Shown here piece by piece: positions 29,800 to 61,711 of a DNA stretch of 61,932 bases. Numbering within the stretch: the first letter of the stretch is position 1; each line of letters starts with the position of its first letter. The notes under the pieces are model-generated. The model was not told the DNA's origin. It searched no databases and worked only from the letters and a program-made list of their open reading frames with translations. The position numbers were made by a program, and so were the translations under genes. Source of the DNA: a virus (lineage: Duplodnaviria; Caudoviricetes); the IMG/VR virus record IMGVR_UViG_3300020578_003649, positions 1 to 61,932 of that record. One strand, 5' to 3'.

Positions 29800-29837
29800 A
29801 TATTCTCCCTTTTTGTATAAATATATGACAAAAGAGA

Positions 29838-32403: not shown

Positions 32404-32405
32404 AT

Positions 32406-38915: not shown

Positions 38916-38960
38916 AATATACCTTTTTATTGTTTATAACTTATAATATTTAATTTTTTG

Positions 38961-40627: not shown

Positions 40628-40629
40628 AT

Positions 40630-42032: not shown

Positions 42033-42033
42033 A

Positions 42034-42876
42034 TTATTTTATTCCTTTTATCATACCATATTCATCAAATACTGGCATTTTACCCCATTTTTCTAACCAT
42101 TTTTTAGAATTTTCAGATTCTGCTTTTCGCTGTCGTTCTGATGATTGACCGTTATTTTCTTCTAATCTATGACTACCTCTAGCTCCAAAATGCCATACAA
42201 CGGAAGAAGCTGGTAAAATGAATCTTACGCCATGTTGAATCATTCTCAAAAATAAATCCATATCTTCCCAGCTGGCTGGTGCAAATCTTGGATCGTTGCC
42301 GCCTATTTCATCCCAAACTGATTTTTTAATTAAACCAGATACACCTTCCCCTTTTGGAATTTCAATATCCTTGTTTATTCTAATAAAATCCTCTGACCAC
42401 GCATCAAAATAATTAGAATCAAAATTATGAAAATATTCCCCAAACATATTCAATGGAACTATAACTGTTCCGGGTCTACTCGATGAATTATTAAACATAT
42501 TCGGTTCTACTCGATGTGGATTGATCCAAAGTTTTTCATCTGGATATTTTTCCTGAATATCTAAGAGTGATTTATCCCAATTTTTAGTTACATAAAAATC
42601 TGAATGAAGAAATAGAATATATTCTGTTTCAACGTGGTCTGCACAAACATTCATTCCGCCGCCGATTCCTCTAACTTTAATATTTTCAGGTTCAATGAGT
42701 AAAGTTAAATTATACTTATCTTGATTTTCAAATAACCATTCATTAGTTCCATCATTACAATTTTCTGCGTGTATTATAAATGGCGCATCTTTAAAATAAC
42801 TATTTTTTCTAACTGAATCTATAGCTATTTTAAGATATGGAAGATTATTATATGTTGAAATGCAAAACGTAATCAT
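42034..42876 (-). CDS. GT2 glycosyltransferase
   Basis: STYNNL, NDGT, LHSDF, EDMD; paralogous to 29838..30998. Confidence 0.88.
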   Translation of the reverse strand: MITFCISTYNNLPYLKIAIDSVRKNSYFKDAPFIIHAENCNDGTNEWLFENQDKYNLTLLIEPENIKVRGIGGGMNVCADHVETEYILFLHSDFYVTKNWDKSLLDIQEKYPDEKLWINPHRVEPNMFNNSSSRPGTVIVPLNMFGEYFHNFDSNYFDAWSEDFIRINKDIEIPKGEGVSGLIKKSVWDEIGGNDPRFAPASWEDMDLFLRMIQHGVRFILPASSVVWHFGARGSHRLEENNGQSSERQRKAESENSKKWLEKWGKMPVFDEYGMIKGIK

Positions 42877-42877
42877 A

Positions 42878-43522
42878 TTAACTTAATGTTATGAAATTTA
42901 CTAGTCCATCATAAAAATTATTTTGACGTTCTTGTCGTTCAATTGTTTTAGGATGATATAAAGCCCATTCTTCTTCTATAGGCAACATCCCATGATTCTT
43001 AAAACCATCTAATACTTCATGAACTTTATTTATCCATTTAATATCAGGAGTATTTTTATAAATTCGCATTTGCCAATCTGCCCAATTTACCCAACCTTTT
43101 TCATTTACATTCCAACCCCATTGTTTAATATGTTCTTCTGTTAAACCTTCAACAGTATTAACTCTAGGGACGCGGATCATATCTACAATTTGGTTTTCTT
43201 TTAATAATGCTGGCAAGTTTTCTATTAAATTGATATGTGGTATTTCATCTGCATCAATTTGAAAAATCCAATCTCCATAGCATAAACTATTTAGTTTATT
43301 TTTCCAATCTGCAAAATGATTTTGAAATTTTGCTTTATGCCAATGAAATTCATTATTTTGTGAATGTGATCTAAGAAATGCTTCAACTTCTTTATCTCCA
43401 TTTGTTTCATCAAATAAAATTACAATATTATCTTGAGATCGTTTATGTTTAACTAAAAAATTAACTAATCGTTGTATTTCTAAAAATTCATTACATACTG
43501 TAATAGCATAACTTATTGTCAT
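42878..43522 (-). CDS. GT2 glycosyltransferase
   Basis: ISYAITVCNE, WIFQIDADE, D.Q.RIY, VHE. Confidence 0.88.
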   Translation of the reverse strand: MTISYAITVCNEFLEIQRLVNFLVKHKRSQDNIVILFDETNGDKEVEAFLRSHSQNNEFHWHKAKFQNHFADWKNKLNSLCYGDWIFQIDADEIPHINLIENLPALLKENQIVDMIRVPRVNTVEGLTEEHIKQWGWNVNEKGWVNWADWQMRIYKNTPDIKWINKVHEVLDGFKNHGMLPIEEEWALYHPKTIERQERQNNFYDGLVNFITLS

Positions 43523-43523
43523 A

Positions 43524-44783
43524 TTATACTTTCTGAAGTTTTGGTAATTGTATTTTATTTAAAGATGGTAATTTTAAAGTTGCTAATTTAGGTATTGATT
43601 CTATTACTGTATCAATTTCTTTAAATACATCAGAATAAATTTTAGTAATTGCCACTTTATTGAAATTGCTGCGTGCAAAGAATCGTTGACGTTTTGCTAA
43701 TTCAGCCCATTTCTTATAATCTTTCTGCACACCTCGCAAACATTCAACTGCGTATTTATAATCTGGCGTAAACCACTTAGCTTCGCCAATTAACCAATCA
43801 TTTTGTGCACTAGGATGCACATTGGTTAATCCGCCTTTTACTTCACAAATAAAATCTTGTTTCAAGAAATCAGCAGGACCTGAAAAATATGGAGCAATAA
43901 TAGGTTTTGATGTTGTTGAAAATTCTAACAATGGACGTCCAAATCCTTCTGATTTAGTTAATGAATACATGGCTTTGACTTTTGGATGCATATACAATGC
44001 ATTCATTTCTGCATCACTTAATTCACCATGCAATAAATATATTTTTGGCAAACGATCTGTTTTTTTGAAAAGACTTGCAACTTGTTTGATTTTCTTTTCA
44101 ATCTCCATTCTGTCTGTAATTGAATAGGTTGCGCCACTAGTTTTTAATACTAATGCAGGTTGCGACTTTTGATTTTTAAATGCATCATAGAATGAATATA
44201 TTGTCCCGCTGATATTCTTGCGATCTTCACCTAATGCACCTTGTAACCAATGTCCGACTGTTAAGAATGTAAATGATTCTGGAATTTCATTTAATGCATC
44301 TAATGTTGTTTCATATTTACCAGTATATACTGCATCATCAAAGTATTCAGGAACAACATGAATTTTAGTAGTTATTGTTTTGTTCTTTTGTTTAGCTGTA
44401 TTTTCAAATACATATTTTGTAAATTCAGATGGCACTATAACCAATTGCATTTTATTTAAATCATCAATCCAGCTTTCAGGGCATAAATCTCCTTCAGTTC
44501 CCGCCGTAATACCAATATTATATTTGCCTACCGGTTGAAACTCATTTGGAATTGTAACTTGAATCCAAATGTCTGGTTGTTCTGTTAATGGTAATGGAAT
44601 GATTCTAGATTTTAAATCATCTGTCAATGGATATGTAAATGGAGTATGACCCCATGGCAATGAAACTAATCGTACATCCCATTCTTTACCTCGTTGTTCA
44701 ATTAATTGCGAAATGATTTCGCGAGCATGGTGTCCATAACCTGATTGTGTCGCAACTGGCGATGCTATAACTAATTTTCTCAT
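43524..44783 (-). CDS. GT4 glycosyltransferase
   Basis: SGYG, VPSEF, RKNI, EGFGRPLLE. Confidence 0.88.
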   Translation of the reverse strand: MRKLVIASPVATQSGYGHHAREIISQLIEQRGKEWDVRLVSLPWGHTPFTYPLTDDLKSRIIPLPLTEQPDIWIQVTIPNEFQPVGKYNIGITAGTEGDLCPESWIDDLNKMQLVIVPSEFTKYVFENTAKQKNKTITTKIHVVPEYFDDAVYTGKYETTLDALNEIPESFTFLTVGHWLQGALGEDRKNISGTIYSFYDAFKNQKSQPALVLKTSGATYSITDRMEIEKKIKQVASLFKKTDRLPKIYLLHGELSDAEMNALYMHPKVKAMYSLTKSEGFGRPLLEFSTTSKPIIAPYFSGPADFLKQDFICEVKGGLTNVHPSAQNDWLIGEAKWFTPDYKYAVECLRGVQKDYKKWAELAKRQRFFARSNFNKVAITKIYSDVFKEIDTVIESIPKLATLKLPSLNKIQLPKLQKV

Positions 44784-46273
44784 TATTCTACTATTCCTGT
44801 TTTTTCGTATTTTTTATGTTCTACTACATTCAATGTATATGATGGGCGTTGTTCTTTATTAATTTCAAACAAATAGTTAATCATTTCAATCATTTTGTTA
44901 CCCATTTGTTCTGCAGTTAATCCGTTTTGCAATGCCCAATTTCTACCAGCTTCTGCCATTTCACTTCTTCGATATAATGGAATATCATACCAATAACGAA
45001 TTGCTGCAGCAACATCTTCAAAATTCGCTCGGTCGTCAAAGATATATGGCGTTGCTGGAGAGCCTTGAAGTGATCTATTACTTGGAAATACTGGTTTAGC
45101 CCATAGCCCATGTTTTTTATAACGACCCATATGATTGGTTGCAAATTCGCCATCAAATCGAATCCACTCATCATTTTCATCTACAAACCCACATTGATCT
45201 TGCAATCCGCCCGTAACATTATTTACAATAGGGGTACCTGCTAAAATTGCCTCGGTTGAACTAAGTCCCCAACCTTCATTTGAACCAATATTAACAACAA
45301 CATCAGCTACATTGTACAATGCATTAAGATCTTGTGCAGATAATTTTTGTTCTGAGAAAATTATTTTACAATCTGGTGCTAAAACATCTCGTACTGCAAT
45401 TAAGTCCGTGCCATTTTCATCAACTGGTTGGGTATGCATTACTAAACCAACTTTAGAACGAGATTCTTCTGGTAATGAATCTACGAATGTTTTAAATGAT
45501 AAGATAAGATCACCTGGTTGTTTTCTTCTGATATTTCGATTATTCCAAAATACTATGAATTCAATATCATTTTGTTTTTTGAATTGATCATGCATTTTTT
45601 TATATGCATTATCTGATGAATCTAATGGTTTAAAATTATTATGATTAAGACCATGTGGTACATAACCCGTAACTACATCATTCCATTTTAGATTAAGCGG
45701 TGCTATATCAAATTCATCATAATCTACAACACCGAAACCGTTCTGTTTAAGAACTTCTCTGTGAATATTATCAGATTGCTTACTAATTCCCATAATTAAG
45801 TCACAACTACCGTAAAATGGAGCATTCCACATTGGATAAGGTAAATCATCCCATATTGAATAATAAATTAATGGAATTCCATAAGTTGTTTTAATTTCAT
45901 GCTCTAATGCATACAACCATGTCCAATATCTTGGATCAGTAAAATGAAAAATTGCATCTGGTTGTTCTTGATTTAACAATGCAAATAAAACATTGCGATC
46001 TCCATAACCTGACCATGGAATTAATTTTACTGATGCATCTGCAACGCCTGTTTCTTGTGCAATTTGTTGAGATAAATCTAAACCTTTGCCATGTTCTGGG
46101 TGTTGTAGTGCTGCACCTAATTGCACCCAATCATACGTTTTAACTGTATTGTAAATAATTTCTTTGCTAACCGTTCCAATACCTGATGGTAAACGAAAAT
46201 CATCTGCTAATAATAGAATCTTTTTTTTCTTAGGTTTGTTAGGATCGATTTTTTGTAATTTTGGTAATTGCAT
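44783..46273 (-). CDS. GT4 glycosyltransferase
   Basis: VPHG, NRNIRRK, EGWGLSSTEA. Confidence 0.88.
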   Translation of the reverse strand: MQLPKLQKIDPNKPKKKKILLLADDFRLPSGIGTVSKEIIYNTVKTYDWVQLGAALQHPEHGKGLDLSQQIAQETGVADASVKLIPWSGYGDRNVLFALLNQEQPDAIFHFTDPRYWTWLYALEHEIKTTYGIPLIYYSIWDDLPYPMWNAPFYGSCDLIMGISKQSDNIHREVLKQNGFGVVDYDEFDIAPLNLKWNDVVTGYVPHGLNHNNFKPLDSSDNAYKKMHDQFKKQNDIEFIVFWNNRNIRRKQPGDLILSFKTFVDSLPEESRSKVGLVMHTQPVDENGTDLIAVRDVLAPDCKIIFSEQKLSAQDLNALYNVADVVVNIGSNEGWGLSSTEAILAGTPIVNNVTGGLQDQCGFVDENDEWIRFDGEFATNHMGRYKKHGLWAKPVFPSNRSLQGSPATPYIFDDRANFEDVAAAIRYWYDIPLYRRSEMAEAGRNWALQNGLTAEQMGNKMIEMINYLFEINKEQRPSYTLNVVEHKKYEKTGIVE

Positions 46274-46315
46274 TCGTAACTTTTCCTTTTATTATAACTT
46301 TATTATAAATATGTA

Positions 46316-47970: not shown

Positions 47971-48549
47971 TTAATCTATTTGTTCCGTAAATGATAAAAC
48001 CCCATCTAACAATTCATCTTTTTTGTTAGACATTTCTTCATAAAAGGCATCTGTCCAACAACCATCTTCATCTCGATATTCTGGATCTTCAAAAAATTCT
48101 TCATCTGGATGAAAATATTCAATGTCTCGATATTGTTGATTCGAAGCAAATGCTCCAATGAAACAATAACCCTCATCATCAAAGGTTCCTTCAACTTTAG
48201 CTCCTGCATATTGTTCTCGAAGGAAATCGGTTAGTTTAAAAAACAATCCTTCTGGAAAGTCCCATGCACTAACAATGTGCAGATAAACGGTATCATCAGA
48301 TGCATCTATATCGTTTAGATAACACCATTTAGCACCAACGTTGTCAATCCACCATTCCCGCGTGTCTTCTGTGCCATCATATAAACTTTCAAAGAGACAA
48401 TTTGAACAAGCTTCTATGCGACTCATATATGTTGAATTTTCAGGCCATTTTTCTGAATTTGTTTCTAATCCAATCCACTCTAAAAATCTAGAAGTATCTT
48501 CCGGGTTTGGAAATTTAATTTCGAAAGTTGAATAAACGTGATTTGCCAT
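47971..48549 (-). CDS. DUF1281/YubB-like ferredoxin-fold protein
   Basis: MAN...WWIDNVGAKW...SAWDFP...DEG. Confidence 0.6.
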   Translation of the reverse strand: MANHVYSTFEIKFPNPEDTSRFLEWIGLETNSEKWPENSTYMSRIEACSNCLFESLYDGTEDTREWWIDNVGAKWCYLNDIDASDDTVYLHIVSAWDFPEGLFFKLTDFLREQYAGAKVEGTFDDEGYCFIGAFASNQQYRDIEYFHPDEEFFEDPEYRDEDGCWTDAFYEEMSNKKDELLDGVLSFTEQID

Positions 48550-48597: not shown

Positions 48598-48813
48598 TTA
48601 TTTGACTGAATCTCTATAATAATGTTGTTGCTCGATTAGATATATATCGATTAAATCTTTAGTTTTTTGCAAATCTTGTTCAAATAAACCCTTATGTCGA
48701 CATCTTACAATGCGTTTAATAATATCAAATTCATATGCATTCAACCCCCAATCTTTTGCAAATTTATATAAACTCTCGTTACCTTTGTAGTGTTTTTGTG
48801 TATTTACGCTCAC
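48598..48813 (-). CDS. DUF3310-like protein (T7 gp1.7/SaV-related)
   Basis: HY...IIKRIVRCRHKG..EQDLQK. Confidence 0.55.
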   Translation of the reverse strand: MSVNTQKHYKGNESLYKFAKDWGLNAYEFDIIKRIVRCRHKGLFEQDLQKTKDLIDIYLIEQQHYYRDSVK

Positions 48814-49259
48814 TTGATTCCTTTTAACATTTTCTTTTTCTCAGCATCATTATAACCATACATTGTCAAAATTCGGTCCAATGTAACTTTATCCATTAAA
48901 TCTGCATAATCTGAAGCTTCGGACTTACTAATCTGATAATGTTCTGCAAGTTGCGTAATTAAATCTTTATCAAATTTATCTTCCGATTTGCCTTTTATAT
49001 ATTTTGCAAAGCTTTTGTTTGTAGGCAAAAGTTCATAATACAATCGATATGTTTCTTGTGGTCGTAATAATCCAATTGTATATGTTTGTAATTCATTAAC
49101 TAATTCAGTTAATTCCATTCGCATAGACAACCAACGATTAACAATAAACGGAGAAAACTTCTTTTGATCCGTTTCGGACCATTTTTTCCATTCTCGTTTT
49201 TTATCCGTTACGCCTCCGATAAAATCAAAAATTGTTGCTGCTTTCTTTTCTTCTGCCAT
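48810..49259 (-). CDS. clamp loader small subunit (T4 gp62-like)
   Basis: IFDFI, FSPFIVNRWLS, FAKYIK, Y.IS..EA..Y. Confidence 0.8.
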   Translation of the reverse strand: MAEEKKAATIFDFIGGVTDKKREWKKWSETDQKKFSPFIVNRWLSMRMELTELVNELQTYTIGLLRPQETYRLYYELLPTNKSFAKYIKGKSEDKFDKDLITQLAEHYQISKSEASDYADLMDKVTLDRILTMYGYNDAEKKKMLKGIK

Positions 49260-49478: not shown

Positions 49479-49696
49479 TATTTTTTAATTTTTATGGGTT
49501 GAAATTCTTCCGGGATAGCACCACAATCGTCACATCTAAATACTGGAATTGGTACCATAGTATCTTTATCGTTTCCTGTTAAAAACTTAGAAACTTTATT
49601 AATTGCCATAACTTGACGAAAATACAATCCGTCACATTCTTTGCATTGAATTGGTTGCATATCGTTAGGACCAATATTAACATTCATTTTACTCAT
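49478..49696 (-). CDS. zinc-ribbon protein
   Basis: CKEC...CDDCG. Confidence 0.75.
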   Translation of the reverse strand: MSKMNVNIGPNDMQPIQCKECDGLYFRQVMAINKVSKFLTGNDKDTMVPIPVFRCDDCGAIPEEFQPIKIKK

Positions 49697-50619
49697 ATTT
49701 CTCCTAATAAATTTACAAACATTGCCATAATATTAATTTCTTTATCTACAACCGATGCATCTTTGTATTGTGCTTCTGCTATAATTAAAATACACGGAGC
49801 TACATGACCAGTTCCCCAATCATCTAATGTATCATAAAGAAATGTATATAATGGAGTGAAATCTTTTACTTTGCTATCTGCAATCGTTTGACGAATTTTA
49901 TTGAACGATGCTTTTTTGTCTTTAGCATTCTTTAATACCTCTAGAATTTCAGTCATATAATTTGCTTGAATAGCACTTGCTTTATCTAATTGTAATTTTC
50001 CATTAACTACAGATGCTTGTGCTGCATTAATTGCACGGCGGATATCTGGGTATGATGCATTGATAATTGCTGCAACATCTTTAATATCATATTCAACACC
50101 TTTATCTTCTAAAACTGTAACTAAACGTTTAGCTACATCTGTTTTGCTAGGCGGGGTGATTGCAAATGTTTGACAACGAGATTGAATTGGATCGATAATC
50201 TTTTCTACATAGTTACATGTAAGGATAAACCGTGTTGTTTTGCTATACGTTTCCATCAAGTTACGCAATGCTGCTTGTGCATTTGGTGTTAAATAATCAG
50301 CTTCATCTAAAATGATAATTTTCCAACGACGAAACCCAACTGTCGATGCATATCTTTTAATTTTATCTCGCACTGCATCTACTGAGTTTTCGTCTGATGC
50401 ATTAATATACATTAAGTCAGCATCAACGCTATTTGCGATAATCTTTGCCAAGGTAGTTTTACCAGTACCAGCTGAACCATAAAATAACAAATGCGGAACA
50501 TCTCCATTTTCAATGAAAATTTTAACTTTTTCAATGATGTGTTCATTACCAATATAACCTTCTAACGTATCCGGGCGAAATGATTCAACCCAAAGTGTAT
50601 TTTCTTGTTGTTTAAACAT
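49693..50619 (-). CDS. clamp loader ATPase subunit (RFC small / T4 gp44-like)
   Basis: WVESFRP, GSAGTGKTT, INASD, LDEAD, QSRC. Confidence 0.95.
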   Translation of the reverse strand: MFKQQENTLWVESFRPDTLEGYIGNEHIIEKVKIFIENGDVPHLLFYGSAGTGKTTLAKIIANSVDADLMYINASDENSVDAVRDKIKRYASTVGFRRWKIIILDEADYLTPNAQAALRNLMETYSKTTRFILTCNYVEKIIDPIQSRCQTFAITPPSKTDVAKRLVTVLEDKGVEYDIKDVAAIINASYPDIRRAINAAQASVVNGKLQLDKASAIQANYMTEILEVLKNAKDKKASFNKIRQTIADSKVKDFTPLYTFLYDTLDDWGTGHVAPCILIIAEAQYKDASVVDKEINIMAMFVNLLGEI

Positions 50620-50624
50620 ATTTT

Positions 50625-51053
50625 TTATTTACCTGTTGATCCGAAACCTTTTTCTCCACGCTTTGTGCCACCGATAAGTGAGCCTACTGCCTGCCAAGCA
50701 ATATGTTCAACTTTAGCTAATACTAATTGCGCAATTCGTTCGCCGATTTTAACTTGAAAATCTTCAGTTCCATGATTAATTAATATTACTCCTAATTCTC
50801 CACGATAATCTGAATCAATTGTGCCTGGACTATTTAATACAGTTACACTATATTTAAGTGCTAAACCACTTCTAGGTCTTACTTGTATTTCATAACCATA
50901 TGGAATTTCAACATATAATCCAGTTTTAATTAAAGCAGTTTTACCAGGTTCAATAATTACATTGTCATTGCTTCTAATATCCATTCCAACACTTCCCCCG
51001 GTTTCATACTGAGGGAGAGCATTGGCTGATTTATTTACTATCTTTATTAACAT
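50625..51053 (-). CDS. dut: trimeric dUTPase
   Basis: GMD, RPRSGLA, GTIDSDYRGE, RIAQLV, RGEKGFGSTG. Confidence 0.97.
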   Translation of the reverse strand: MLIKIVNKSANALPQYETGGSVGMDIRSNDNVIIEPGKTALIKTGLYVEIPYGYEIQVRPRSGLALKYSVTVLNSPGTIDSDYRGELGVILINHGTEDFQVKIGERIAQLVLAKVEHIAWQAVGSLIGGTKRGEKGFGSTGK

Positions 51054-51673
51054 TTATATAATTTATTTCTTAAAATATTTTCTTTCCATGGAATAAATCT
51101 TAAATTAGATATATCTCCAATAATATTAGGATCAATATTATCGCGGAAACCTTCGGATATCGGAATAATATGATCTAATTGATAATTATCGGTACCTTTT
51201 TTTGCTTTTCCGCGGTTTTCATGAAATTCTAAAGTATGTATTGCTTGTCGTTTTGTTATTTTATGAACTTCATTATAATATTTCTTTTTTTCGGATAATA
51301 CCTGCTCATATTCTATTTCACTTAAATTAGTTGCTAAACTATTTTGCATTCCTAATGATATATTATATCCATTCGGAATACGTTTTTTAGTTTCATATGC
51401 TTTTAGTAAACCTTCTGAAATTTTTTGCTTATGTATTATGCCTTTTGGTTTACCTGTCCAATATCCAATACAACCTGTATTTTTTTCTGAAACTGTTTTT
51501 TTCCTTTCTTCCGTTTTAGGTTTGCCGTATGATGGATTTTTTTCATTCAATTTTGAACAACTATAACATTCCCATTCTTGCATACGCTTTAACAAACCTG
51601 GAGTCATTCTTTTTGCTTTAGAATATTTAGGTGATCCGCAATTTGGGCAGTCACAAACATAATACCGTTCCAT
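51047..51673 (-). mobile_element. free-standing HNH homing endonuclease with NUMOD3-like repeats
   Basis: NPSYGKPKTEERKKTVS; YQLDHIIPIS...NLRFIPWKEN; sits between clamp and dUTPase with its own ATATTTAT. Confidence 0.75.
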
Positions 51674-51730: not shown

Positions 51731-52441
51731 TTAATTCTGCAACATCACAAGCCAATATGTAGATTCAAAATCCGAACCAGTAAAATCAATACGAGCTAAA
51801 CCATCCGGAGATACCTTAAGATAACCAGAATCTCCTCGATTTGCTACAAGAACTTCTTTTAGTTTATCTGCAGAGAAACAAACCGGATCCATTGAGTTTT
51901 GATTTGCTGCTCCAACTTCAAATGAAATATTATCTGCATTTACGGTTGAATAATTGATAATGAATTTAATTTGTCCATTAACAATTTGAACTGCAAAGTT
52001 TTTCGCATCTGGTAATGCATTCTTTGCTTTAATGAATTTACTGATAAATTCTTCATTAACTGGAATGGTTACTTCATAATCTGGTTCTGCATTGATTGAA
52101 GGCACTGCTGGAATAACTGTCGTATCAGCCAACATAAAAGTTGCTTTAGTTGTTCCTTCTGAAATTTTCATTGCATAATTCTTACCAGCTGCATTTTGAA
52201 CTTCAATTTCAATATTCTCATTCAATGCACCAAGCATTTTAATTAATGCGCCGGTATGATTAATACCTAACATACCTGTCATAAATGGAGTGGTATTCCA
52301 TTTAATTTTACCTACAATGGTTTGATCCATATCAATTAGTTCACAACCAATTGATCCTTCTTGTTCTTTCAACGTAACCGCTTCGCAATTTCCTGCTAAG
52401 TAGTAACGATTAATAAACGATTGTAACTTGCTTTTTTCCAT
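51731..52441 (-). CDS. DNA sliding clamp (gp45/PCNA-like)
   Basis: 236 aa, two-domain beta-rich pattern, LADTTVIP linker, STYWLV end; near clamp loader. Confidence 0.75.
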   Translation of the reverse strand: MEKSKLQSFINRYYLAGNCEAVTLKEQEGSIGCELIDMDQTIVGKIKWNTTPFMTGMLGINHTGALIKMLGALNENIEIEVQNAAGKNYAMKISEGTTKATFMLADTTVIPAVPSINAEPDYEVTIPVNEEFISKFIKAKNALPDAKNFAVQIVNGQIKFIINYSTVNADNISFEVGAANQNSMDPVCFSADKLKEVLVANRGDSGYLKVSPDGLARIDFTGSDFESTYWLVMLQN

Positions 52442-52454
52442 TTTTTATTTCCAA

Positions 52455-53714
52455 TTAAAAAGTAAAGAATTTATTAAATTGTTCTGCATCGGTAGTTGAA
52501 ATACTGCTACCACCGAATTTTTTATATGTTTTGATGTATTTCTCATATACTTGAGGTGCGTTGTCTGGATCTGCAAACATTTCGTGTAATGATAAAACTA
52601 CATCATATAAATCTTTTGGAATTACTGTTTCTAGCAATTCAACGTGACTATCAACTAATTGATTGATTTCATTTGCAGCTTGTACATATAAATGTGTATT
52701 ATGTACAACCATTCTAGGCATAGCTTCTTGTGAATATCTATCTAAGCCTTCTGGCGTTTTTCCGCCTAATAATTCATAGGTAAAATCTGAGCATGCTGGG
52801 CAATTCATTGCGCAAGGTACGTGCTGAGTTAAATCAATTGCAACTTCGCCTGTCTTACCTTGTTTGATATGTGACTTTCTGCGGTATTCTGCATTCTTTG
52901 GAAAATATAATTCAGAGAATGTTTGTGTTTTATAATTCGTAGAATGAAGATACGTTCCAAATACCGGATATTGACCTGGAGAACTAGAATCTGTTGTAAT
53001 ATAAATTCTATTGCCTGTCAATTCATTCATTAACTTTTGCAATGTTGCTAAAATAAAGAAATCTGAAATTTTACTAATACCAAGTAAGTGAACATATTCT
53101 AATCGTTTATTTTCAAATTCTCTTTCTTTAAGCATCAAAGATACCGCAAACATAAAATCTACTAATTTTTGCGGACCTCCGATTGCCCAACCTTGAAAAT
53201 CAAAATGTTTAAATTTATGATACCACCAAGTATACTCATCTGTATTAGAACCTTGTAACATGTTCAAAAACTTAGTTTTGCCACTTTGATGTTTTTCAAA
53301 CCAAGCAAAGTTATCATAACTAATATCGGCACACTCAGCGAATTTGTTTTTATATTTTGTCTTGGGTGGAATATCGAGATTTGCTGCTACATCACTATTA
53401 GCTTCTAACCAATGAAAAATCTTTTCTCGCAATTCGTTACTATATGGTAATGCACCAGTTGCAATCTGATAACCGCCTGAGTCGCCAAATACTAATACAT
53501 CTTTTTCTAATCCTAATTGATCACGAAAATCCATTTTCTTGTAATGATGCCCTGCCGTAATCAAGAAATATGGATGACGCCATTTTTCTGGATAACGGGA
53601 ATCAAAGAACTTTACGGGATCGCCGTTTGTAAACTTCATATCTTTCTTAAATGCAGATACCATGGAACCTGCAGATAAAGATGGAAAGTATATGAATCTT
53701 TTGTTATCGCTCAT
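52455..53714 (-). CDS. dpdA: TGT-fold guanine transglycosylase, probable DNA 7-deazaguanine insertase
   Basis: GDSGGYQ, LDIPP, LQG, GWAIGG, VHLLG, DSSS, C..CPAC...HN; clustered with folE/queD/queE and replisome. Confidence 0.75.
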   Translation of the reverse strand: MSDNKRFIYFPSLSAGSMVSAFKKDMKFTNGDPVKFFDSRYPEKWRHPYFLITAGHHYKKMDFRDQLGLEKDVLVFGDSGGYQIATGALPYSNELREKIFHWLEANSDVAANLDIPPKTKYKNKFAECADISYDNFAWFEKHQSGKTKFLNMLQGSNTDEYTWWYHKFKHFDFQGWAIGGPQKLVDFMFAVSLMLKEREFENKRLEYVHLLGISKISDFFILATLQKLMNELTGNRIYITTDSSSPGQYPVFGTYLHSTNYKTQTFSELYFPKNAEYRRKSHIKQGKTGEVAIDLTQHVPCAMNCPACSDFTYELLGGKTPEGLDRYSQEAMPRMVVHNTHLYVQAANEINQLVDSHVELLETVIPKDLYDVVLSLHEMFADPDNAPQVYEKYIKTYKKFGGSSISTTDAEQFNKFFTF

Positions 53715-54729
53715 TATATTCCTTTAAATTATTAATTAAGTGTGTTGCCGAAAAAAAGTTATTATGTAATTTATCTACCAAATTAGCAATCTGTTCTGAT
53801 AAATCTTGTTGTTCATATTTTAATATTGCTTGAACTGTCTCATCTACAGTGTCTGCTTGTTTAAACATAGGGTGATACATTTCCGTATATGATAATCGAT
53901 TTGGAACAATTGGACATGCTCCAGCACAAGCCGATTCATACATAGAAATACCCAATGTTTCTTGATCTGCAAATGATACTGCAAATTTAGATCTTTGAAG
54001 CAATTCATGATATTCTTTTTTAGTTAAATTTATTTCCATTGCAACACAAAATTGATAATGTGCTAATTCAGGTCGTGATGCTAATTCTTGAAATAAATCT
54101 AAACGTTTCTCTGGGGCTATGCGATGCGGAAATACAATTATATCTTGTTTTTGCTGCCATGAAACAAATTGAATTATATCTCGTGTATATTCCATTGGCC
54201 AACCCGTACGATTAAATGTCGGATTCAAAAAGACATCATATGTTTTACACATCAAATCAAAATGTGCTTTAGTTGCAATCCAATTGTGATCATATGCGCC
54301 AATCATTGCTTGTTCAGTGTGTCTAATCCATGATTTATCTCCTACGAGACGACCTAAAAAATCATTTGGGTCATATGAACCCGCGTGCCATAAACCGTGT
54401 GTTACAACAGGTATATTTAAAAGCTCACTCATGTATTTTACATTGATAATGCCCGGGTGCCAAGCATCTGTAAAAATGATATGGTCGCCGGTTTGTATAT
54501 GACCTTTAGTAAACATATATGATAAAGTATGCACTTGCTTTGCTTTATACATATTAGTGCCACCGAAGTTTAAAAAGGCACCTGGTGTCGTTGCTTCTGG
54601 AATATTTAAATCTCCTTCAACTACAATAACTTCAAACCCAGCGTCTTCTAATAACTTCGGTACATGTGTCTTCCATTCGCAAGTATAACGAGTAGGAACT
54701 GATTCTATGTCAACTAAAAATATTTTCAT
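53704..54729 (-). CDS. GT-B (GT4-like) glycosyltransferase
   Basis: FPHRIAPEK, QETLGISMYE, PNRLSY.EM; start moved to MKIFLVD. Confidence 0.8.
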   Translation of the reverse strand: MKIFLVDIESVPTRYTCEWKTHVPKLLEDAGFEVIVVEGDLNIPEATTPGAFLNFGGTNMYKAKQVHTLSYMFTKGHIQTGDHIIFTDAWHPGIINVKYMSELLNIPVVTHGLWHAGSYDPNDFLGRLVGDKSWIRHTEQAMIGAYDHNWIATKAHFDLMCKTYDVFLNPTFNRTGWPMEYTRDIIQFVSWQQKQDIIVFPHRIAPEKRLDLFQELASRPELAHYQFCVAMEINLTKKEYHELLQRSKFAVSFADQETLGISMYESACAGACPIVPNRLSYTEMYHPMFKQADTVDETVQAILKYEQQDLSEQIANLVDKLHNNFFSATHLINNLKEYNER

Positions 54730-54730
54730 A

Positions 54731-55081
54731 TTATCTTTCAATGATTGCACCATTTTCCCAATCTTCCCAAACTTCTACTTTGTATAATTCTGGAAATCTC
54801 CATAACAACCATTCGCCAATTTTTTCACATGACATCGCACCAAATTCTAATACATTGATAACGCCAGTTTCAAATTGTCGTTGTAGTTGCGATTTTATTT
54901 CACGATTCAATAAAATAAACTCTTTATCGCGATCTGTGTGAGTTACTTTAGCATAACAACGGAAACCAAACATGTGTCGATGTCTATCTGATAAGAATGC
55001 TACTTCCGGAAATATGTCTTTTGCAGCAGGCCAATTATGAAAGCCTTCCATGCTAAATGTTACTACTACGCTGTATTTCAT
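54731..55081 (-). CDS. dpdL: QueD-paralogous T-fold protein, DpdL-like (predicted CDG decarboxylase)
   Basis: EGFHNW, LSDRHRHMF (LxxxHRHxF), SCE, VEVWED. Confidence 0.65.
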   Translation of the reverse strand: MKYSVVVTFSMEGFHNWPAAKDIFPEVAFLSDRHRHMFGFRCYAKVTHTDRDKEFILLNREIKSQLQRQFETGVINVLEFGAMSCEKIGEWLLWRFPELYKVEVWEDWENGAIIER

Positions 55082-55469
55082 CTGCTATTAATTTTTTAAA
55101 TTTAGTTGTAGACCAACCATGATTTCTATTTAAATAATGTATTGGAATATGTAGTTCCTTGCCGGTAAATTCTGCGGATATATAATCATCTCCTAGAAAT
55201 CTTACATCTGGTTCAATTGAACGTAATAAAAATGTTAATTCGGCTTCTGTATTGTAAGTTAAAATCATACAACCTTTAACCATATATGTTAACATTTCAC
55301 GTCGCTCTGCTATAGATAAAACTGGTTTTAGTTTTGTAGGTCGTTCGATTGTCGGATCATCATGTAATAATATTATTAGTTGATCGCAGTTTTCTTGACA
55401 TTGTTTAAACATATGAATATAACCTGGGTGTATACAATCAAAGTTACCTGCTATAACACCCGTCTTCAT
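55053..55469 (-). CDS. cytidylyltransferase-like protein (TagD/RfaE family)
   Basis: GNFDCIHPGY, KPV...ER, LGDDY, WSTT. Confidence 0.85.
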   Translation of the reverse strand: MKTGVIAGNFDCIHPGYIHMFKQCQENCDQLIILLHDDPTIERPTKLKPVLSIAERREMLTYMVKGCMILTYNTEAELTFLLRSIEPDVRFLGDDYISAEFTGKELHIPIHYLNRNHGWSTTKFKKLIADEIQRSSNI

Positions 55470-55915
55470 TGTTCGTATCTATCAAATTTATAATCATCTG
55501 GCAATACTTGTTGCATATTATGCACTGTCGTACAATATAATGAATAATCATTATATACAACTTTAATGCTATCTGTTTTCTTTAACAACCCAGCATCCTT
55601 CTCATTAAGCATTAACAATATATGAGCTCTGATACGAATCATAGGTGGAATCTTTTCAAGCATACCTGGTTCGACTTCGATCGAGACAAATTGTTTGTCT
55701 GACATCATATTGAATATATTGTTCCAATCAAAACCTTTGATTTGATTATTTACCAATTGTTTAGTTGCTGGAGAACAAATATAAACGTGTGCTACAGGTT
55801 TCCAAATTTCTTTACCTAATACTAATGTATTAAAATCGGAAACAAACATTGTTTCTACGTCAGTAAATCGTCCTTCAACTTCTTTACCAAACCATATGCT
55901 TTTATAACCAATCAT
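55466..55915 (-). CDS. hypothetical protein, first gene of the dpd operon
   Basis: WFGKEVEG...ETMFV; class I promoter at ~55918-55949. Confidence 0.75.
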   Translation of the reverse strand: MIGYKSIWFGKEVEGRFTDVETMFVSDFNTLVLGKEIWKPVAHVYICSPATKQLVNNQIKGFDWNNIFNMMSDKQFVSIEVEPGMLEKIPPMIRIRAHILLMLNEKDAGLLKKTDSIKVVYNDYSLYCTTVHNMQQVLPDDYKFDRYEQ

Positions 55916-55938
55916 ACTATATTATAATAAATTTATTA

Positions 55939-58455
55939 TTATTTTCCAAATGAAAAGAATTTAGCTACGTTATTATTTTCAGGAAATGCTCCCCAATTCA
56001 TTGCAGCATAAAAATCATCAAGTTTATTTTTTAATTCTTTTTCAAAAATTTTATTTCTATCAATATATTGTTCAACGAAATCTGCAATAACTTTTGGATC
56101 TTGGTAACCTCGCAATGCAATAGTATCAAAGCCATATGGATTATCTGACAAATAAGCCCATTTAACTTTTTCGCCGTCTGTTATCATTTCTACATCTGTT
56201 ATTTTATGCATTGATAACAAATCATTAAAATTGATTGCAGCTTTAACGTGTGCTGGAGTACCCGATAAATAACCTGTAAATGGTTTACGACGTTTAGTAT
56301 ATTTAGAAATTTCTTTTACTCCGGAGTTTTTCATTACATTGAGTATTGGAGATTTCTTAAGATCTGTTTTAAATTTATGGATCATATCCGTAGTTTGAGT
56401 TTTATCTCGTTCTTTAAGAATATGCCATAATGTTTCTTTCATGATCTTTTTAAAATCTTCCGGAAAGCTTGATCTAACAACATCTAATCCTTTGATATCT
56501 AATTTATCCGTAGATTTGCCTTCTTTGAAAATTACCCATTGTGCATATCGTTTCTTTGCAATCCATAAACCAGACTTTGCAACATATTCTTGTTTAATTT
56601 GCCAACGATGTGTTGCTGTATTATGGAAAACTTCAGCATAACGATCATACATTTTATTAACTAATGCTTGAACTTCAGATGCAATTGTATTTGTTTGATC
56701 AATCATAAATTGTTCATCCGATTCATCAAATCCTGGAAATCGTTTTTTAATTAATGGCAAACTGGATACAAAGGTTGAATCTGTATCAGTATAAAATGCA
56801 AATTCTGCTTTGCCATTTGTTGCATTAATAAAATGATCTTGACCTGTTTCTTTTGCATAATGATTATTGATAACCTTTGCAGAAAATTTAATTACTGCTT
56901 GACCGGTTGCTGTAATAGCACCTGCATTATCTAAATCATGGAAACGAAATGTCTTAAGTCCTAATACTCCATAAAATGAATTGAGCAATACTTTTTGTGT
57001 TAATTGAAGTGCATCATAAAATTTATATTGTTCAGAACCAACTTCAAATTCATCTCGTTTATCTTTATAAATAACACGCTCCTCAAACCATTTTTCTAGA
57101 ATGGTTGGTAAGAATCCTTTACGAGCCGTTTGATATACAGTACCATTACTTGCAACTGTATAACTATTATCTAATAGCCACGCTTTAACGTGTAGGATAT
57201 GTGTACCATCTTGCAATGTTACTTCTTGTGGTTTTGATTTTAACAAACATTCTTGATCCCAATTTTTAATAACACCTATTTTAGTTTCTGGAGAAATATT
57301 AAGTGTCATGATAATACTTGGATATAGTGATGTTAAATCTAAGTCATATATCCATTTATACAAACCTGGGACAGGATCTTTTACATATGCTCCTGCTAAT
57401 GCATCTGCTTCAGTTTCTTCTTCAATAAATCTAAATTGTTTATTTGGTGCAACTAATCCATTGCGTTTTAAATCCACGATAGCAGCACCATCTAAATATT
57501 TAGATGCATAATAAACATCTTCATACGGAACATGTCCTTTATGACATATGGTTCGAGCAAGATTAAGAAGTTGTGTCTTTTCATCTAGATCTTGAACTAG
57601 ATTAACGTCAACCATGTTATATTCAACAAACTTGTGAATATTAGTTGCAAAAAGTTGATTTAAATCTCCTTCATATTCAACTTTGCCTCGACCTAATTCA
57701 AATTTAGCAACTGTGTCTAAACGATAATTTGGAAGTTCTGTATATGTAAATTTTTTATAAAGTGTCAAATAATCTAAACTTGATACCCCGAAGATTTTAT
57801 ATCGTTCACGATTCTTGTTCCATTCAACAATTCCTGCTGGAGATAATTTTTTTATTGACTGTGCACCTAATACATTTTTACAACGATTAATAAGATATGG
57901 GATATCATAATTGTCTGTATTCCATCCTGTGATAACCGTTGGTTGAACTGCTGCAAATATATTAATAAAACGTGTTAACATATCTGCTTCACTACGAAAT
58001 ATTTCTACTTCATAATCAGTTTCTGAAAAACCGGTTGTTGTAACTCGTTTTTCTTCATCTAATAACAATACTCTGCGGTCATTACCGGCTTTATCATAAT
58101 ATGCAATAGATGTAATTTTTAATCGAGCTTCTACTGGTGTTGAATAACCATTTTCATCTCGCTCAGACTCAATATCAAAGAAAAAGTCTCGATGTCCTTT
58201 TGATGGCTCATCTGATTCATAATACAAATCAATCAATGTTCGTACTTCTTCATTTAAATCAGATTCATATGCCGTTCGATTGTCTTTGTGATTGCCAGGT
58301 ACTTTATTTAAAATTGCACCATCTAATGATTTATATTGTCCGTTTGAATCTGGTAAATATGCATATGGTTGAAATGTAAACTTTTGATGTCCCAATTCAT
58401 CATCCCACACGTGCATGATACCATTCTTTTTATCGTAACCTATTGATTGGTACAT
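55939..58455 (-). CDS. family B DNA polymerase
   Basis: ExoI FDIE, ExoII GWNTDNYD, DLTSLYPS, K..LNSFYG, YTDTDS, KKRY. Confidence 0.97.
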   Translation of the reverse strand: MYQSIGYDKKNGIMHVWDDELGHQKFTFQPYAYLPDSNGQYKSLDGAILNKVPGNHKDNRTAYESDLNEEVRTLIDLYYESDEPSKGHRDFFFDIESERDENGYSTPVEARLKITSIAYYDKAGNDRRVLLLDEEKRVTTTGFSETDYEVEIFRSEADMLTRFINIFAAVQPTVITGWNTDNYDIPYLINRCKNVLGAQSIKKLSPAGIVEWNKNRERYKIFGVSSLDYLTLYKKFTYTELPNYRLDTVAKFELGRGKVEYEGDLNQLFATNIHKFVEYNMVDVNLVQDLDEKTQLLNLARTICHKGHVPYEDVYYASKYLDGAAIVDLKRNGLVAPNKQFRFIEEETEADALAGAYVKDPVPGLYKWIYDLDLTSLYPSIIMTLNISPETKIGVIKNWDQECLLKSKPQEVTLQDGTHILHVKAWLLDNSYTVASNGTVYQTARKGFLPTILEKWFEERVIYKDKRDEFEVGSEQYKFYDALQLTQKVLLNSFYGVLGLKTFRFHDLDNAGAITATGQAVIKFSAKVINNHYAKETGQDHFINATNGKAEFAFYTDTDSTFVSSLPLIKKRFPGFDESDEQFMIDQTNTIASEVQALVNKMYDRYAEVFHNTATHRWQIKQEYVAKSGLWIAKKRYAQWVIFKEGKSTDKLDIKGLDVVRSSFPEDFKKIMKETLWHILKERDKTQTTDMIHKFKTDLKKSPILNVMKNSGVKEISKYTKRRKPFTGYLSGTPAHVKAAINFNDLLSMHKITDVEMITDGEKVKWAYLSDNPYGFDTIALRGYQDPKVIADFVEQYIDRNKIFEKELKNKLDDFYAAMNWGAFPENNNVAKFFSFGK

Positions 58456-58458
58456 ATA

Positions 58459-58962
58459 TTATATTTCGTAAATATCTAATAATTCTCGTTTAATTCCGTT
58501 ATCGTCAAGCCCATAACCCACTACCCATTGGTCTTCAATTTCAAATGCATAAAAATCTGTCATGAGCGGACTAGATTTTCTTTTAAGCAATGTTACTACT
58601 TTAACATCGGCAGCATATCGAGAATTAACTAAATGCAATGCTTCAAACATTGTAGCACCCGTATCTAAAATATCATCTACAATATAAACTCGTTTACCAT
58701 GTAAATCTAATTCAATGTCTTTGATTACTTTAACTCCGCAGCTGTTGTCTTGTCCTTCATATGATTTTAATCGAATACAATCAATTTCGCAAAAAATTGA
58801 CATCGATCTTGTTAAATCTGAAAAGAAATGTAATGCGCCATTTAACACACAGATCATCACTGGGGGCAGCGCATTGCCAGATTTCATATGATCTACTGAT
58901 ATTGCATCTGCTAATTGTTGAACTCGGTCTCGTATTTGTTCTTTTGTGATGATTTTTTCCAT
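58459..58962 (-). CDS. hpt: hypoxanthine/guanine phosphoribosyltransferase
   Basis: CVLNGA..FFSDL, IVDDILDTGAT, WVVGYGLD. Confidence 0.92.
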   Translation of the reverse strand: MEKIITKEQIRDRVQQLADAISVDHMKSGNALPPVMICVLNGALHFFSDLTRSMSIFCEIDCIRLKSYEGQDNSCGVKVIKDIELDLHGKRVYIVDDILDTGATMFEALHLVNSRYAADVKVVTLLKRKSSPLMTDFYAFEIEDQWVVGYGLDDNGIKRELLDIYEI

Positions 58963-60125: not shown

Positions 60126-60902
60126 TTATACTCCTCTTTTTGTATTATAACTTATTATGTGATCGCGACCAGTCATGTTATAGCCTTTTTCAGCACACAT
60201 TTCGAATACGATAGGGTACATTTTAATAAGCTCGTCACGCGTATCACCTGCGGGCATAATATATGTCTTATTTTTAGGAATGTTAAACAATACCCTAAAT
60301 TCTTCAATTTCTTCTAAATTATATGCAGTGCCATCCCAAACTGGTTTATAATGGTAATCGGCATGAAATGATATCATTTGCTTAATAGCTTCCGTGTTTA
60401 ATCTGAACTTGTTATGCTGTTTAACCATTTTTTCATCTGTAATAGTACCTTGTGGAGTTGCAACACCTACAACTGGGATACTATTGCTAAACTTAGGACT
60501 AAGGCTAATAAGTCCAATTGGATAATCAGTCTCAATAAAATGAGATCCTTCAGTCTCAATTGTGATAAGAATACCTCTTTCATGAGCGAAATGTGTTAAT
60601 TCATTTACTAATGCAGGGTGCATGGTTGGAGACCCGCCTGTTAACATCATTTCCGTAATATGTGGATTCTCATCATAAATCTTAATGATGTCATTAAAAC
60701 AAAAGGTGCCTTTTTCAGGATGTATACTTGTATACCATGAGTCGCACCACCCACCCTCGCCAAAATAGCAACGATGCGTGCAACCTGTAGTTCTAACTGC
60801 AATAGTAGGTCGGCCAAACCGACTGCCTTCGGATTGTACGCAACGATACAATTCTACTATTGGTAATGTTTTTGTGTAATCTGTAATTCTTCCTGGTTTC
60901 AT
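60126..60902 (-). CDS. queE: 7-carboxy-7-deazaguanine synthase (radical SAM)
   Basis: VQSEG..GRP, RTTGCTHRC...WCDS, TGGSP, IETEG, SPK; start moved to MKPGR. Confidence 0.9.
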   Translation of the reverse strand: MKPGRITDYTKTLPIVELYRCVQSEGSRFGRPTIAVRTTGCTHRCYFGEGGWCDSWYTSIHPEKGTFCFNDIIKIYDENPHITEMMLTGGSPTMHPALVNELTHFAHERGILITIETEGSHFIETDYPIGLISLSPKFSNSIPVVGVATPQGTITDEKMVKQHNKFRLNTEAIKQMISFHADYHYKPVWDGTAYNLEEIEEFRVLFNIPKNKTYIMPAGDTRDELIKMYPIVFEMCAEKGYNMTGRDHIISYNTKRGV

Positions 60903-60909
60903 AATAGGA

Positions 60910-61257
60910 TTAAAAAGGTAATTCATCATCATTGGCATCGACATGATCTAATTTTTTTATTAGTTCGTTAAATTTTTCTTCTAATGCAGTTAGTTTATCA
61001 AACAATGCGTTCAAAGTTACTGGATCTATCATTGTATACTTAACATCATTGCCAAAATATTTATTTAGAAATGATCTAGGATATGTTGCAACTCGAGAAA
61101 AATTTTCGCGACTCATGTCCGGAGGTAAATCACGCCAAACAATTTTGATGCCTTCTTTTAAGGCAGCATCCATTATTTCGCGACCTACATTATTAAGTGT
61201 AGCAGATTTACCTGTATACTCGTAAATTGATACATACATTTCATTAATATTGTTCAT
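60910..61257 (-). CDS. hypothetical protein with coiled coil and SSB-like acidic tip
   Basis: Ends DANDDELPF. Confidence 0.7.
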   Translation of the reverse strand: MNNINEMYVSIYEYTGKSATLNNVGREIMDAALKEGIKIVWRDLPPDMSRENFSRVATYPRSFLNKYFGNDVKYTMIDPVTLNALFDKLTALEEKFNELIKKLDHVDANDDELPF

Positions 61258-61711
61258 AACTTGCTGAATTTCGTTCGTGTTCGTATACTTCTACTTTTGT
61301 AGCTTTAACTCTTCCTTCAGTTTCTTCCTTGAGGAATGCATTGATTATTTCAAATAAAAACTCTGCAAATCTCTCACAGCCAGTTGCTGGTAATACTCTA
61401 AGTTGTATGATTCCATCTTTGTCCATTTGTATAAATTTTTGTAAGTATGGATCATCTTCAGCTACAATAGTTGTGTGATCTAGCAACCAAGCAAAGTATT
61501 CTTTTGGTGACATACCTAAGATGGTAGAGTTAGCTCTTTTCATACCGCCGAAATCCCATACCCAATTGCGTTCATCTAGTTCACCTTCAAACCATACTCG
61601 GAATGAAATTGCATAGCCATGTAGGTATTTACAATGTGTGCCATCTGCTTTCCATTGACGGAAACATGCTGAGTACCCATCATATAATTTAGTTGAAATG
61701 TAACGTGCCAT
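61244..61711 (-). CDS. queD: 6-carboxytetrahydropterin synthase
   Basis: HCKYLHGY, WVWDFG, LDH, CERFA, VYEH..NSA. Confidence 0.9.
   Translation of the reverse strand: MARYISTKLYDGYSACFRQWKADGTHCKYLHGYAISFRVWFEGELDERNWVWDFGGMKRANSTILGMSPKEYFAWLLDHTTIVAEDDPYLQKFIQMDKDGIIQLRVLPATGCERFAEFLFEIINAFLKEETEGRVKATKVEVYEHERNSASYEQY

Follow-up and report, generated by a model that had tools for sequence, protein, structure and literature searches.

In every T4-type system studied, the C-terminal hydrophobic tail of the DNA polymerase binds the sliding clamp, and in T4 itself gp43, gp55 and gp33 bind the clamp gp45 through C-terminal motifs that are highly similar and interchangeable, that of gp55 being a conserved epitope on a divergent 17-residue connector, as described in the available text of PMC2988020. 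According to the same text, the RB69 clamp was crystallized with the last 11 residues of the polymerase on a patch of the C-face, and T4 gp45 accepts such tails at no fewer than two sites, with the clamp loader using the same face (PMC2988020). A DNA-modification enzyme, the T4 alpha-glucosyltransferase, co-purifies with gp45 in pull-downs and is proposed to modify DNA during replication, in the accessible part of PMC13216743. As regards 7-deazaguanine modifications, a 2023 survey proposes, in the portion of it at hand, that all of them are post-replicative (PMC10516641). How a phage DpdA reaches high or complete replacement of guanine, and when it does so relative to replication, is the question that we address here. 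We analyzed a window of 61,932 nucleotides (nt) from an uncultured phage (Caudoviricetes; IMG/VR record IMGVR_UViG_3300020578_003649, whole record), that is, one 61.9-kb contig that is the source of all window open reading frames (ORFs), with genes on the minus strand. It encodes a DpdA-like transglycosylase whose C-terminal tail resembles that of the phage polymerase. We found that this shared tail behaves as a T4-type clamp-binding motif, and that docking of the transglycosylase to the clamp is well supported in silico, because the tail sits on a variable linker, is deeply conserved, tracks the polymerase tail across lineages and is modeled in the clamp pocket, and because its gene lies in the polymerase–clamp–loader module.

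The polymerase is a family-B (T4 gp43-type) enzyme of 838 residues (55939..58455; PF00136, 2.4e-38; PF03104, 3.9e-22; phrog_262, 9e-183), and ends NNVAKFFSFGK, its presumed clamp-binding tail. The transglycosylase has 419 residues (52455..53714), is recognized by a structure match to the tRNA-guanine transglycosylase (TGT) fold and by invariant residues, comprises a catalytic core of about residues 1–400, and ends EQFNKFFTF. Its C-terminal tail, made up of linker and motif (residues ~402–419, SSISTTDAEQFNKFFTF; 52455..52511), is the proposed clamp-docking peptide, on the basis of conservation and modeling. The sliding clamp, gp45/PCNA-like and of 236 residues (51731..52441), is formed of two beta-alpha-beta-beta-beta domains and is recognized by its fold, with a weak NCBIfam PCNA match (E 5.3e-5). 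All three genes lie on the minus strand, and the clamp gene starts 13 nt after the stop codon of the transglycosylase gene. The preliminary description of this window had reported the two tails, the TGT fold of the 419-residue protein and the position of its gene directly upstream of the clamp gene: both tails read as described, the fold is borne out by structural comparison, and the downstream neighbor indeed folds as PCNA/gp45.

The shared motif is highly specific to these two proteins. Among 105 non-overlapping ORFs of the window (19,828 residues), KFF.F occurs twice, each time within the last 12 residues, in the polymerase and in the transglycosylase, for expected numbers of ~0.16 anywhere and 0.007 in tails; FF.F occurs three times, two of which are these tails. 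We also screened 200 related loci for a strict form of the tail, in which FFx[FYWL] or [LMI]Fx[FYW] stands no more than two residues from the end. Of the complete polymerases 107 of 114 have it, and of the complete TGT-like ORFs 99 of 186, compared with only 3 of 2,448 other same-strand ORFs of at least 100 residues. These counts, together with those of KFF.F in the window, rule out a chance likeness of the tails. In the complete 159.6-kb relative G001, the real ORFs (TAA or TGA stops) that end in the strict motif FFxF plus at most two residues are those of the polymerase, the TGT-like protein and a baseplate-hub-like protein. The last of these (L235:68-829, minus strand; phrog_150) ends GADFFWF, an end that is probably structural and unrelated to the clamp. 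In the window itself, a search for further clamp clients with the same tail found none. A separate 61-residue ORF (3691-3876, minus strand) ends NRMFDNLFGE, a hydrophobic-acidic tail that recalls T4-type clamp-binding ends, and to judge from its sequence might encode a gp33-like co-activator; neither this ORF nor that at 47971-48549 has a PHROG match, so that equivalents of gp55 and gp33 were not identified.

By its modeled fold, a TIM barrel with a zinc subdomain at the C-terminus, the 419-residue protein belongs to the TGT superfamily, and its catalytic signature is intact. The AlphaFold2 model, with a predicted local distance difference test (pLDDT) value of 90.2, aligns best with TGTs of human and bacterial origin (VIA-align Z 25.0; for 7nq4_A, 309 residues with a root-mean-square deviation of 3.8) and with bacterial and archaeal TGTs at Z values of ~22–24, and Foldseek also matches it to TGT (E 1.5e-9, probability 1.00). 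In an alignment of 41 transglycosylase sequences, D78 (in GDSGGYQ), D114, H209, G212 and D242-S243-S244 are invariant, with catalytic roles that we assume by analogy with known TGTs. The window protein also carries C301, C305, C308 and H338 in a CxxxCxxC...H zinc-type pattern; the CxxxCxxC cysteines are lost in rows L108, L111, L120, L125, P0143, P0163 and P0168, all of which retain the aspartates of the catalytic type and the aromatic motif at the C-terminus. Searches by sequence reach less far: PF01702 matches 21 of the 41 aligned relatives (best E 1.9e-11), the sole NCBIfam match of the window protein is the archaeal tRNA enzyme TgtA (E 0.0012), a search of PDB sequences returned marginal matches only, and tblastn returned only matches of 20–34% identity, in Pseudomonas, Vibrio, Sinorhizobium, Xanthomonas and other phages. 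A megablast of the region against the phage collection revealed no named close relative.

The 236-residue protein has no Pfam or PHROG match. We identify it as a sliding clamp with a two-domain protomer fold because its model matches the PCNA/gp45 fold in Foldseek, with probability 1.00 and TM-scores of 0.69–0.77 to PCNAs and T4 gp45 (6drt_A, 3u61_F and 1czd_A among the matches). As a homolog search gave only relatives at least 82% identical, diverse clamps were taken from related loci, and the model was built on an alignment of 24 such homologs; the monomer reached a pLDDT of 94.5 and a predicted TM-score (pTM) of 0.90.

The transglycosylase tail is a short linear motif on a variable, low-confidence linker. 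The last 19 residues of the model have pLDDT values of ~48–53, with a short helix at 410–416, and in the 41-sequence alignment, where mean column identity is 43%, F417 never varies and F416 is conserved to at least 90%, after a gap-rich linker that varies in length and sequence. Close homologs (n = 120, at least 73% identity) end in aromatic-F-x-F/Y in 117 cases, and all 120 have the aromatic pair. For a deeper view we took 150 representatives of 50%-identity clusters, 119 of which are full length and ~30–48% identical to the query. Within their last 10 residues, FF was found in 53 of the 119 and [FLMIYH]F in 93, compared with 14 and 199, respectively, of 1,875 unique other ORFs taken as background; among 135 unique locus copies, the numbers were 105 and 124. 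In members that look tail-less at first sight, the motif persists a short way inside, ahead of an extension rich in lysine or in acidic residues (NEYFDF, EEFFNF, TEFFDY, HEFF). Conservation across homologs had been set beforehand as a check on the tail, and the pair is thus kept far beyond the background.

The transglycosylase tail also tracks the polymerase tail of the same genome, as strong evidence that falls short of conclusive. In loci holding both genes, clustered to 18 lineages (<70% identity), cognate tails had a mean similarity of 18.6 versus 13.6 for non-cognate ones (permutation p ~1e-4). A second comparison used the last 45 residues, so as to include internal motifs, in 16 lineages, two having been dropped post hoc for short polymerase ORFs, and gave 24.1 versus 17.6 (p ~4e-5). 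In 10 of the 18 loci, the TGT-like ORF has the most polymerase-like tail among all ORFs of at least 80 residues. The clearest cases are those in which both proteins leave the FF consensus together: transglycosylase KKINNLFKF with polymerase KKINSLFKF in L122, VVKMDALF with MIKMDGLF in L135, NTYNSLFE with NTFNSLFD in L138, LKEIF with LKTMF in L150, and IETFFDF with IESFFEF in L116. In L122, a LicD-family protein (PF04991, 6e-12; L122:8247-8939, plus strand) ends YEKINNFFKF, like the polymerase and transglycosylase tails of that locus; the cluster that holds it (L122:3544-10005) also encodes a methyltransferase, an NTP-transferase/aminotransferase fusion, a Gfo/Idh/MocA oxidoreductase and an ADH-like protein.

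We then turned to a model of the complex between the window clamp and transglycosylase residues 375–419, a prediction that had been called for beforehand. The model docks the tail in the clamp pocket with a score of 0.64, versus 0.00 for the best of three controls. Solved complexes attain this mark in 58 of 80 cases and mismatched pairs in 2 of 110, counts that are approximate here given that custom alignments were used. At least 57% of contacts are common to the runs, with partner pLDDT of at least 52. Residues 407–419 make the contacts, with the lowest error at F413, F416, F417 and F419, and the modeled pocket comprises D39-V43, A112-P120 of the interdomain loop, D213-L215 and W230-Q235, which is presumably the canonical PCNA pocket for PCNA-interacting peptides (PIP). 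A co-varying peptide does not by itself reveal its binding partner, and the shared tail could target another common partner, such as the clamp loader, the helicase/primase, the single-strand-binding protein or the replication compartment, a reading for which the multiple tail sites on T4 gp45, on the face used by the loader, leave some room (PMC2988020, available text). We nevertheless consider it very improbable, as the T4-type polymerase tails studied so far bind the clamp (PMC2988020, same text), the model puts the aromatics in the canonical pocket with controls at 0.00, and the genes of the transglycosylase and the clamp are adjacent in most lineages.

Gene order in related phages is consistent with a link between transglycosylase and clamp. 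The clamp gene directly follows the transglycosylase gene in 9 of the 12 lineage representatives in which a clamp was found, and in 48 of 60 distinct rows the clamp ORF starts between -91 and +38 nt from the transglycosylase stop, negative values reflecting over-long ORF calls. In L125 and L131, the polymerase gene stands between the two. The modification module as such recurs across the 18 lineage representatives. The nearest named polymerase, 44% identical, is that of Microcystis phage Mel-JY01 (PP395634, L204), which ends NLSKFFNFK; in that genome (9001-14036), the polymerase gene is followed directly by an unannotated 250-residue ORF at the position of the clamp and by annotated loader genes, with no transglycosylase between. 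Because the replication module of Mel-JY01 is devoid of a transglycosylase, the modification genes look like an insertion into the replication module and Mel-JY01 like the arrangement that preceded it, as far as sequence can tell.

In the window, the operon runs, all on the minus strand, from a gene for a hypoxanthine/guanine phosphoribosyltransferase (HGPRT)-like protein through those of the polymerase, a 149-residue protein, a cytidylyl/adenylyltransferase-like protein, a QueD-like protein, a GT1-like glycosyltransferase and the transglycosylase to that of the clamp. The HGPRT-like protein (167 residues, 58459..58962; TIGR01203, 6.3e-41, 139.9 bits for a cut-off of 150; PF00156, 2.9e-22) is encoded by a gene that stops 3 nt upstream of the polymerase gene, and has homologs in 7 of 18 lineage representatives; in four of these (L178, L111, L197 and L119) the homologous gene sits just before that of the polymerase. 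The enzyme could salvage guanine set free by base exchange, or could activate the deazaguanine base to a nucleotide. The 149-residue protein (55466..55915) matches no family in Pfam, PHROGs, NCBIfam or Atlas, and has homologs in 5 of 18 representatives. Next come the cytidylyl/adenylyltransferase-like protein (138 residues, 55053..55469; PF01467, 3.3e-10; phrog_7878, 1.7e-30; TIGR02199, 1.3e-11, below cut-off), the QueD-like protein (116 residues, 54731..55081; identified by tblastn) and the GT1-like glycosyltransferase (349 residues, 53704..54753; weak PF00534, 5e-5, below cut-off; phrog_4356; Atlas clusters viral GT1-like). The end of the last gene overlaps the start of the transglycosylase gene by 11 nt, and a GT1-like homolog is found in 15 of 18 representatives, mostly just upstream of the transglycosylase. 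The GT1-like protein, the cytidylyl/adenylyltransferase and the 149-residue protein may point to hypermodification beyond the base exchange, such as with a sugar or a phospho-alcohol.

Downstream of the clamp gene lie an HNH gene, a dUTPase gene and those of the large subunit (49693..50619; gp44/RFC-like AAA+; phrog_168, 9e-86; PF00004; PF13177) and small subunit (48810..49259; gp62-like; PF16790 Phage_clamp_A, 4.7e-8; phrog_225, 1.7e-19) of the clamp loader, both on the minus strand. The zinc-ribbon/HNH-like ORF (208 residues, 51047-51673, minus strand; phrog_5104), between the clamp and dUTPase genes, is probably a mobile homing endonuclease, because it has a counterpart in none of the 18 lineage representatives. 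Further upstream in the window are genes for thioredoxin, GroES, QueE, QueD and the end of FolE. Elsewhere, a low-GC island (27–30%; ~29800-46300, minus strand) encodes GT2 and GT1/GT4 glycosyltransferases, NAD-dependent epimerases/dehydratases and a SIS-domain protein, and is a sugar-nucleotide/glycan pathway of unassigned target. PADLOC returned nothing meaningful on the locus.

The window also encodes a set of predicted enzymes for making a deazaguanine base. A GTP cyclohydrolase I (FolE), of which the C-terminal part is present, the gene being truncated by the contig end (61711..61932; NF006824, 1.9e-27; TIGR00063, 4e-25), a QueD-like 6-carboxytetrahydropterin synthase (61244..61711; TIGR03367, 9.2e-6, below cut-off) and a QueE-like radical-SAM 7-carboxy-7-deazaguanine synthase (60126..60944; TIGR03365, 9.9e-15, below cut-off; the CP220 radical-SAM gene CPT_0017 matches at 9.4e-14) are all encoded on the minus strand, at most 8 kb upstream of the transglycosylase gene. 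The 116-residue QueD-like protein of the operon is 41% identical, over 100% of the query, to proteins of Cellulophaga phages phiST, phi13:1 and phi19:2 (tblastn). The phiST gene concerned, CGPG_00067, is predicted to encode DpdL, a 7-carboxy-7-deazaguanine decarboxylase giving 7-deazaguanine, in the accessible part of PMC10516641. A search for QueC in four near-complete relatives found none, while control genomes gave a match in 14 of 14. Because of the DpdL homolog and of the absence of QueC from these relatives, the DNA base is predicted, by analogy with phiST, to be 7-deazaguanine (dDG) or 7-carboxy-7-deazaguanine (CDG).

As for the DpdA subfamily, filing under DpdA3 or DpdA2 is not supported. 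Alignment of our family against phiST DpdA3 (CGPG_00065) with hhalign gave a probability of 2.6% (E 0.017), and a hidden Markov model (HMM) of the family matched none of the three records searched, Vibrio phage nt-1 (DpdA2, YP_008125322), CP220 and phiST (DpdA3), in a search of doubtful sensitivity: by the same search, PF01702 matched none of five (9g, nt-1, CP220, phiST and a close relative). The profile search is thus insensitive for phage TGTs, and only the hhalign comparison with phiST carries weight. In these comparisons, which covered DpdA2 and DpdA3, the family matched neither. In CP220, a T4-like and fully modified phage, we located a QueE-like gene and the polymerase, which ends ETETLEEW; phmmer with phiST DpdA3 found no homolog among the 19 neighboring coding sequences, none of which has a polymerase-like tail, and tblastn with phiST DpdA3 reached no Campylobacter phage.

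The lack of a match to any DpdA subfamily tested (DpdA2 and DpdA3), the tRNA TGTs as best structural matches, the TgtA match mentioned above and the loss of zinc cysteines in some members would all fit a phage tRNA-guanine transglycosylase, or a non-catalytic relative, in which the likeness of the tail has nothing to do with DNA modification. We give hardly any weight to this reading. The catalytic-type aspartates are invariant; the gene forms one overlapping operon with those of the polymerase, the clamp, the DpdL homolog and a glycosyltransferase, with FolE, QueD and QueE nearby; phage DpdAs are generally too divergent for PF01702, as in 9g, nt-1, CP220 and phiST; and a clamp-type tail makes little sense on a tRNA enzyme. 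From the context and the tail, it is reasonable to infer that the substrate is DNA rather than tRNA.

Based on these data, we propose a model in which clamp-docked, DpdA-like base exchange takes place on nascent DNA, and we regard this mechanism as a whole as probable. The 419-residue protein would be a DpdA-like base-exchange enzyme carrying FNKFFTF on a flexible linker, a motif of the same kind as KFFSFGK of the polymerase, and both tails would insert in the C-face hydrophobic pocket of the gp45/PCNA-like clamp, which the interdomain loop and the C-terminal strands together form. The clamp-bound transglycosylase would then be retained on freshly synthesized duplex DNA behind the fork, where guanine would be exchanged for a 7-deazaguanine base. 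FolE, QueD and QueE would supply CDG, which the DpdL-like protein is predicted to decarboxylate to 7-deazaguanine. In this scheme, actual binding, the substrate, the timing relative to the fork, the inserted base and the extent of guanine replacement are what we infer from the observations above.

A number of points weigh against this model. The window transglycosylase has no PF01702 match up to E 0.1. Among the modeled clamp contacts, 4 of 19 are strictly or almost strictly invariant (G214, V232, D39 and P120), with ~2 expected by chance, so that the pocket is not clearly enriched, and the model may owe its score to memory of solved PCNA–PIP and gp45–peptide complexes (6drt, 1rxm, 1isq); because such complexes are already solved, we take it as a sign of likeness rather than as proof of binding. 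In the tracking analysis, a transglycosylase ranked its own polymerase tail first in only 4 of 16 lineages. The lineage-wide N-x-F-F consensus could partly explain the tracking, and metagenomic lineages are not phylogenetically independent, which is why we grade it as not conclusive. DpdA3 is the subfamily credited with complete guanine replacement, including in phiST, in the available part of PMC10516641, and phiST DpdA3 ends YLRELLKK, without an aromatic tail, so that no clamp tail is needed for full replacement there. For the T4 alpha-glucosyltransferase, gp45 binding is reportedly not what chiefly sets its share of glucosylation, to go by the accessible text of a 2026 paper (PMC13216743). 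Finally, the HGPRT-like gene beside the polymerase gene leaves room for a pre-replicative route at the nucleotide level.

Several of these points would also suit another reading, in which the tail binds the clamp as a loose recruitment only, with no processive or fork-coupled role, and bulk modification is set by expression and activity, or else follows a pre-replicative route in which the polymerase incorporates a deaza-nucleotide made by the HGPRT-like enzyme and the transglycosylase mops up residual guanine. In T4, the alpha-glucosyltransferase does bind gp45, but the alpha/beta ratio is reported to depend on the strength of promoters and of translation (PMC13216743, accessible text); the ADG nucleoside has been reported from the cytoplasm of cells infected with CP220, a report cited in the available part of PMC10516641; and the position and recurrence of the HGPRT-like gene and the full replacement achieved by tail-less phiST DpdA3 point the same way. 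We find this reading unlikely. The tail is kept, and tracks the polymerase, across lineages down to ~25% identity, which implies sustained selection on the contact; the HGPRT-like enzyme could equally salvage guanine freed by base exchange; and we identified no kinase or reductase here that would be dedicated to a deaza-nucleotide. The preliminary description had argued for base exchange tethered to the clamp and coupled to the fork, as the explanation of processive, genome-wide replacement of guanine. The tether is supported in silico, as conservation, tracking, the model and synteny all favor clamp docking, and the coupling to the fork would follow from our proposed model; the tether as the cause of processive, genome-wide replacement fares less well, given phiST DpdA3, tail-less yet fully effective, and the alpha-glucosyltransferase.

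A polymerase-like tail on a DpdA-like enzyme provides a concrete and testable mechanism for fork-coupled base exchange. If the mechanism is true, these phages would insert 7-deazaguanine in the course of replication and not simply after it. The mechanism could then account for the failure of such enzymes in heterologous hosts devoid of the phage clamp, and would suggest co-expression of the clamp and its loader; attempts with DpdA3 and DpdA4 in E. coli did fail, according to the part of PMC10516641 at hand. Moreover, likeness to the tail of the cognate polymerase offers a sequence signature for finding replisome-tethered modification enzymes in metagenomes. More broadly and tentatively, as an idea that we find plausible rather than probable, a large uncultured T4-like clade would have turned its clamp into a hypermodification toolbelt, in which the transglycosylase and, in at least one lineage, LicD carry a polymerase-type tail, the tail co-evolves and base exchange is co-replicative. 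A full-text search of the literature for a link between DpdA and the sliding clamp, with matches judged on title and abstract, found none, a second search on clamp binding by phage modification enzymes returned no paper on DpdA, and the word "clamp" occurs nowhere in PMC10516641.

How does this system compare with those already described? Like phage DpdA1–DpdA4 (PMC6884629; PMC10516641, in the available part), it consists of a phage-encoded TGT-superfamily protein next to genes for 7-deazaguanine precursors. It shares FolE, QueD, QueE, a DpdL homolog and the absence of QueC with phiST, whereas phiST DpdA3 has 259 residues compared with the 419 found here, where the canonical GDSGGxQ and zinc motifs are kept. 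In eukaryotes, DNMT1 and UNG2 are recruited to PCNA by PIP boxes, an analogy only: coupling to replication by a clamp-binding peptide is alike, while the domain of life, the chemistry and the class of motif differ. Another parallel is the T4 alpha-glucosyltransferase, which modifies phage DNA and touches the sliding clamp, and which Sommer et al. reportedly found in 2004 to bind gp45. It is a glycosyltransferase acting on 5-hydroxymethylcytosine (5-hmC), in contrast with the TGT-fold base exchanger of our window, and no polymerase-like terminal motif is described for it in the accessible text of PMC13216743. The T4-type clamp motifs of gp43, gp55 and gp33, along with the RB69 gp45–peptide complex, are similar in having an extreme C-terminal hydrophobic motif, a divergent connector, polymerase and non-polymerase clients alike and, in our model, a patch on the C-face. 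Here, binding is predicted by a model, the client would be a base-exchange enzyme instead of a transcription factor, and the motif is a basic/polar-aromatic N-K-F-F-x-F, compared with the "hydrophobic and acidic" one of T4. Our finding is thus best filed as a new class of client, and a variant of the motif, of the known T4-type clamp toolbelt.

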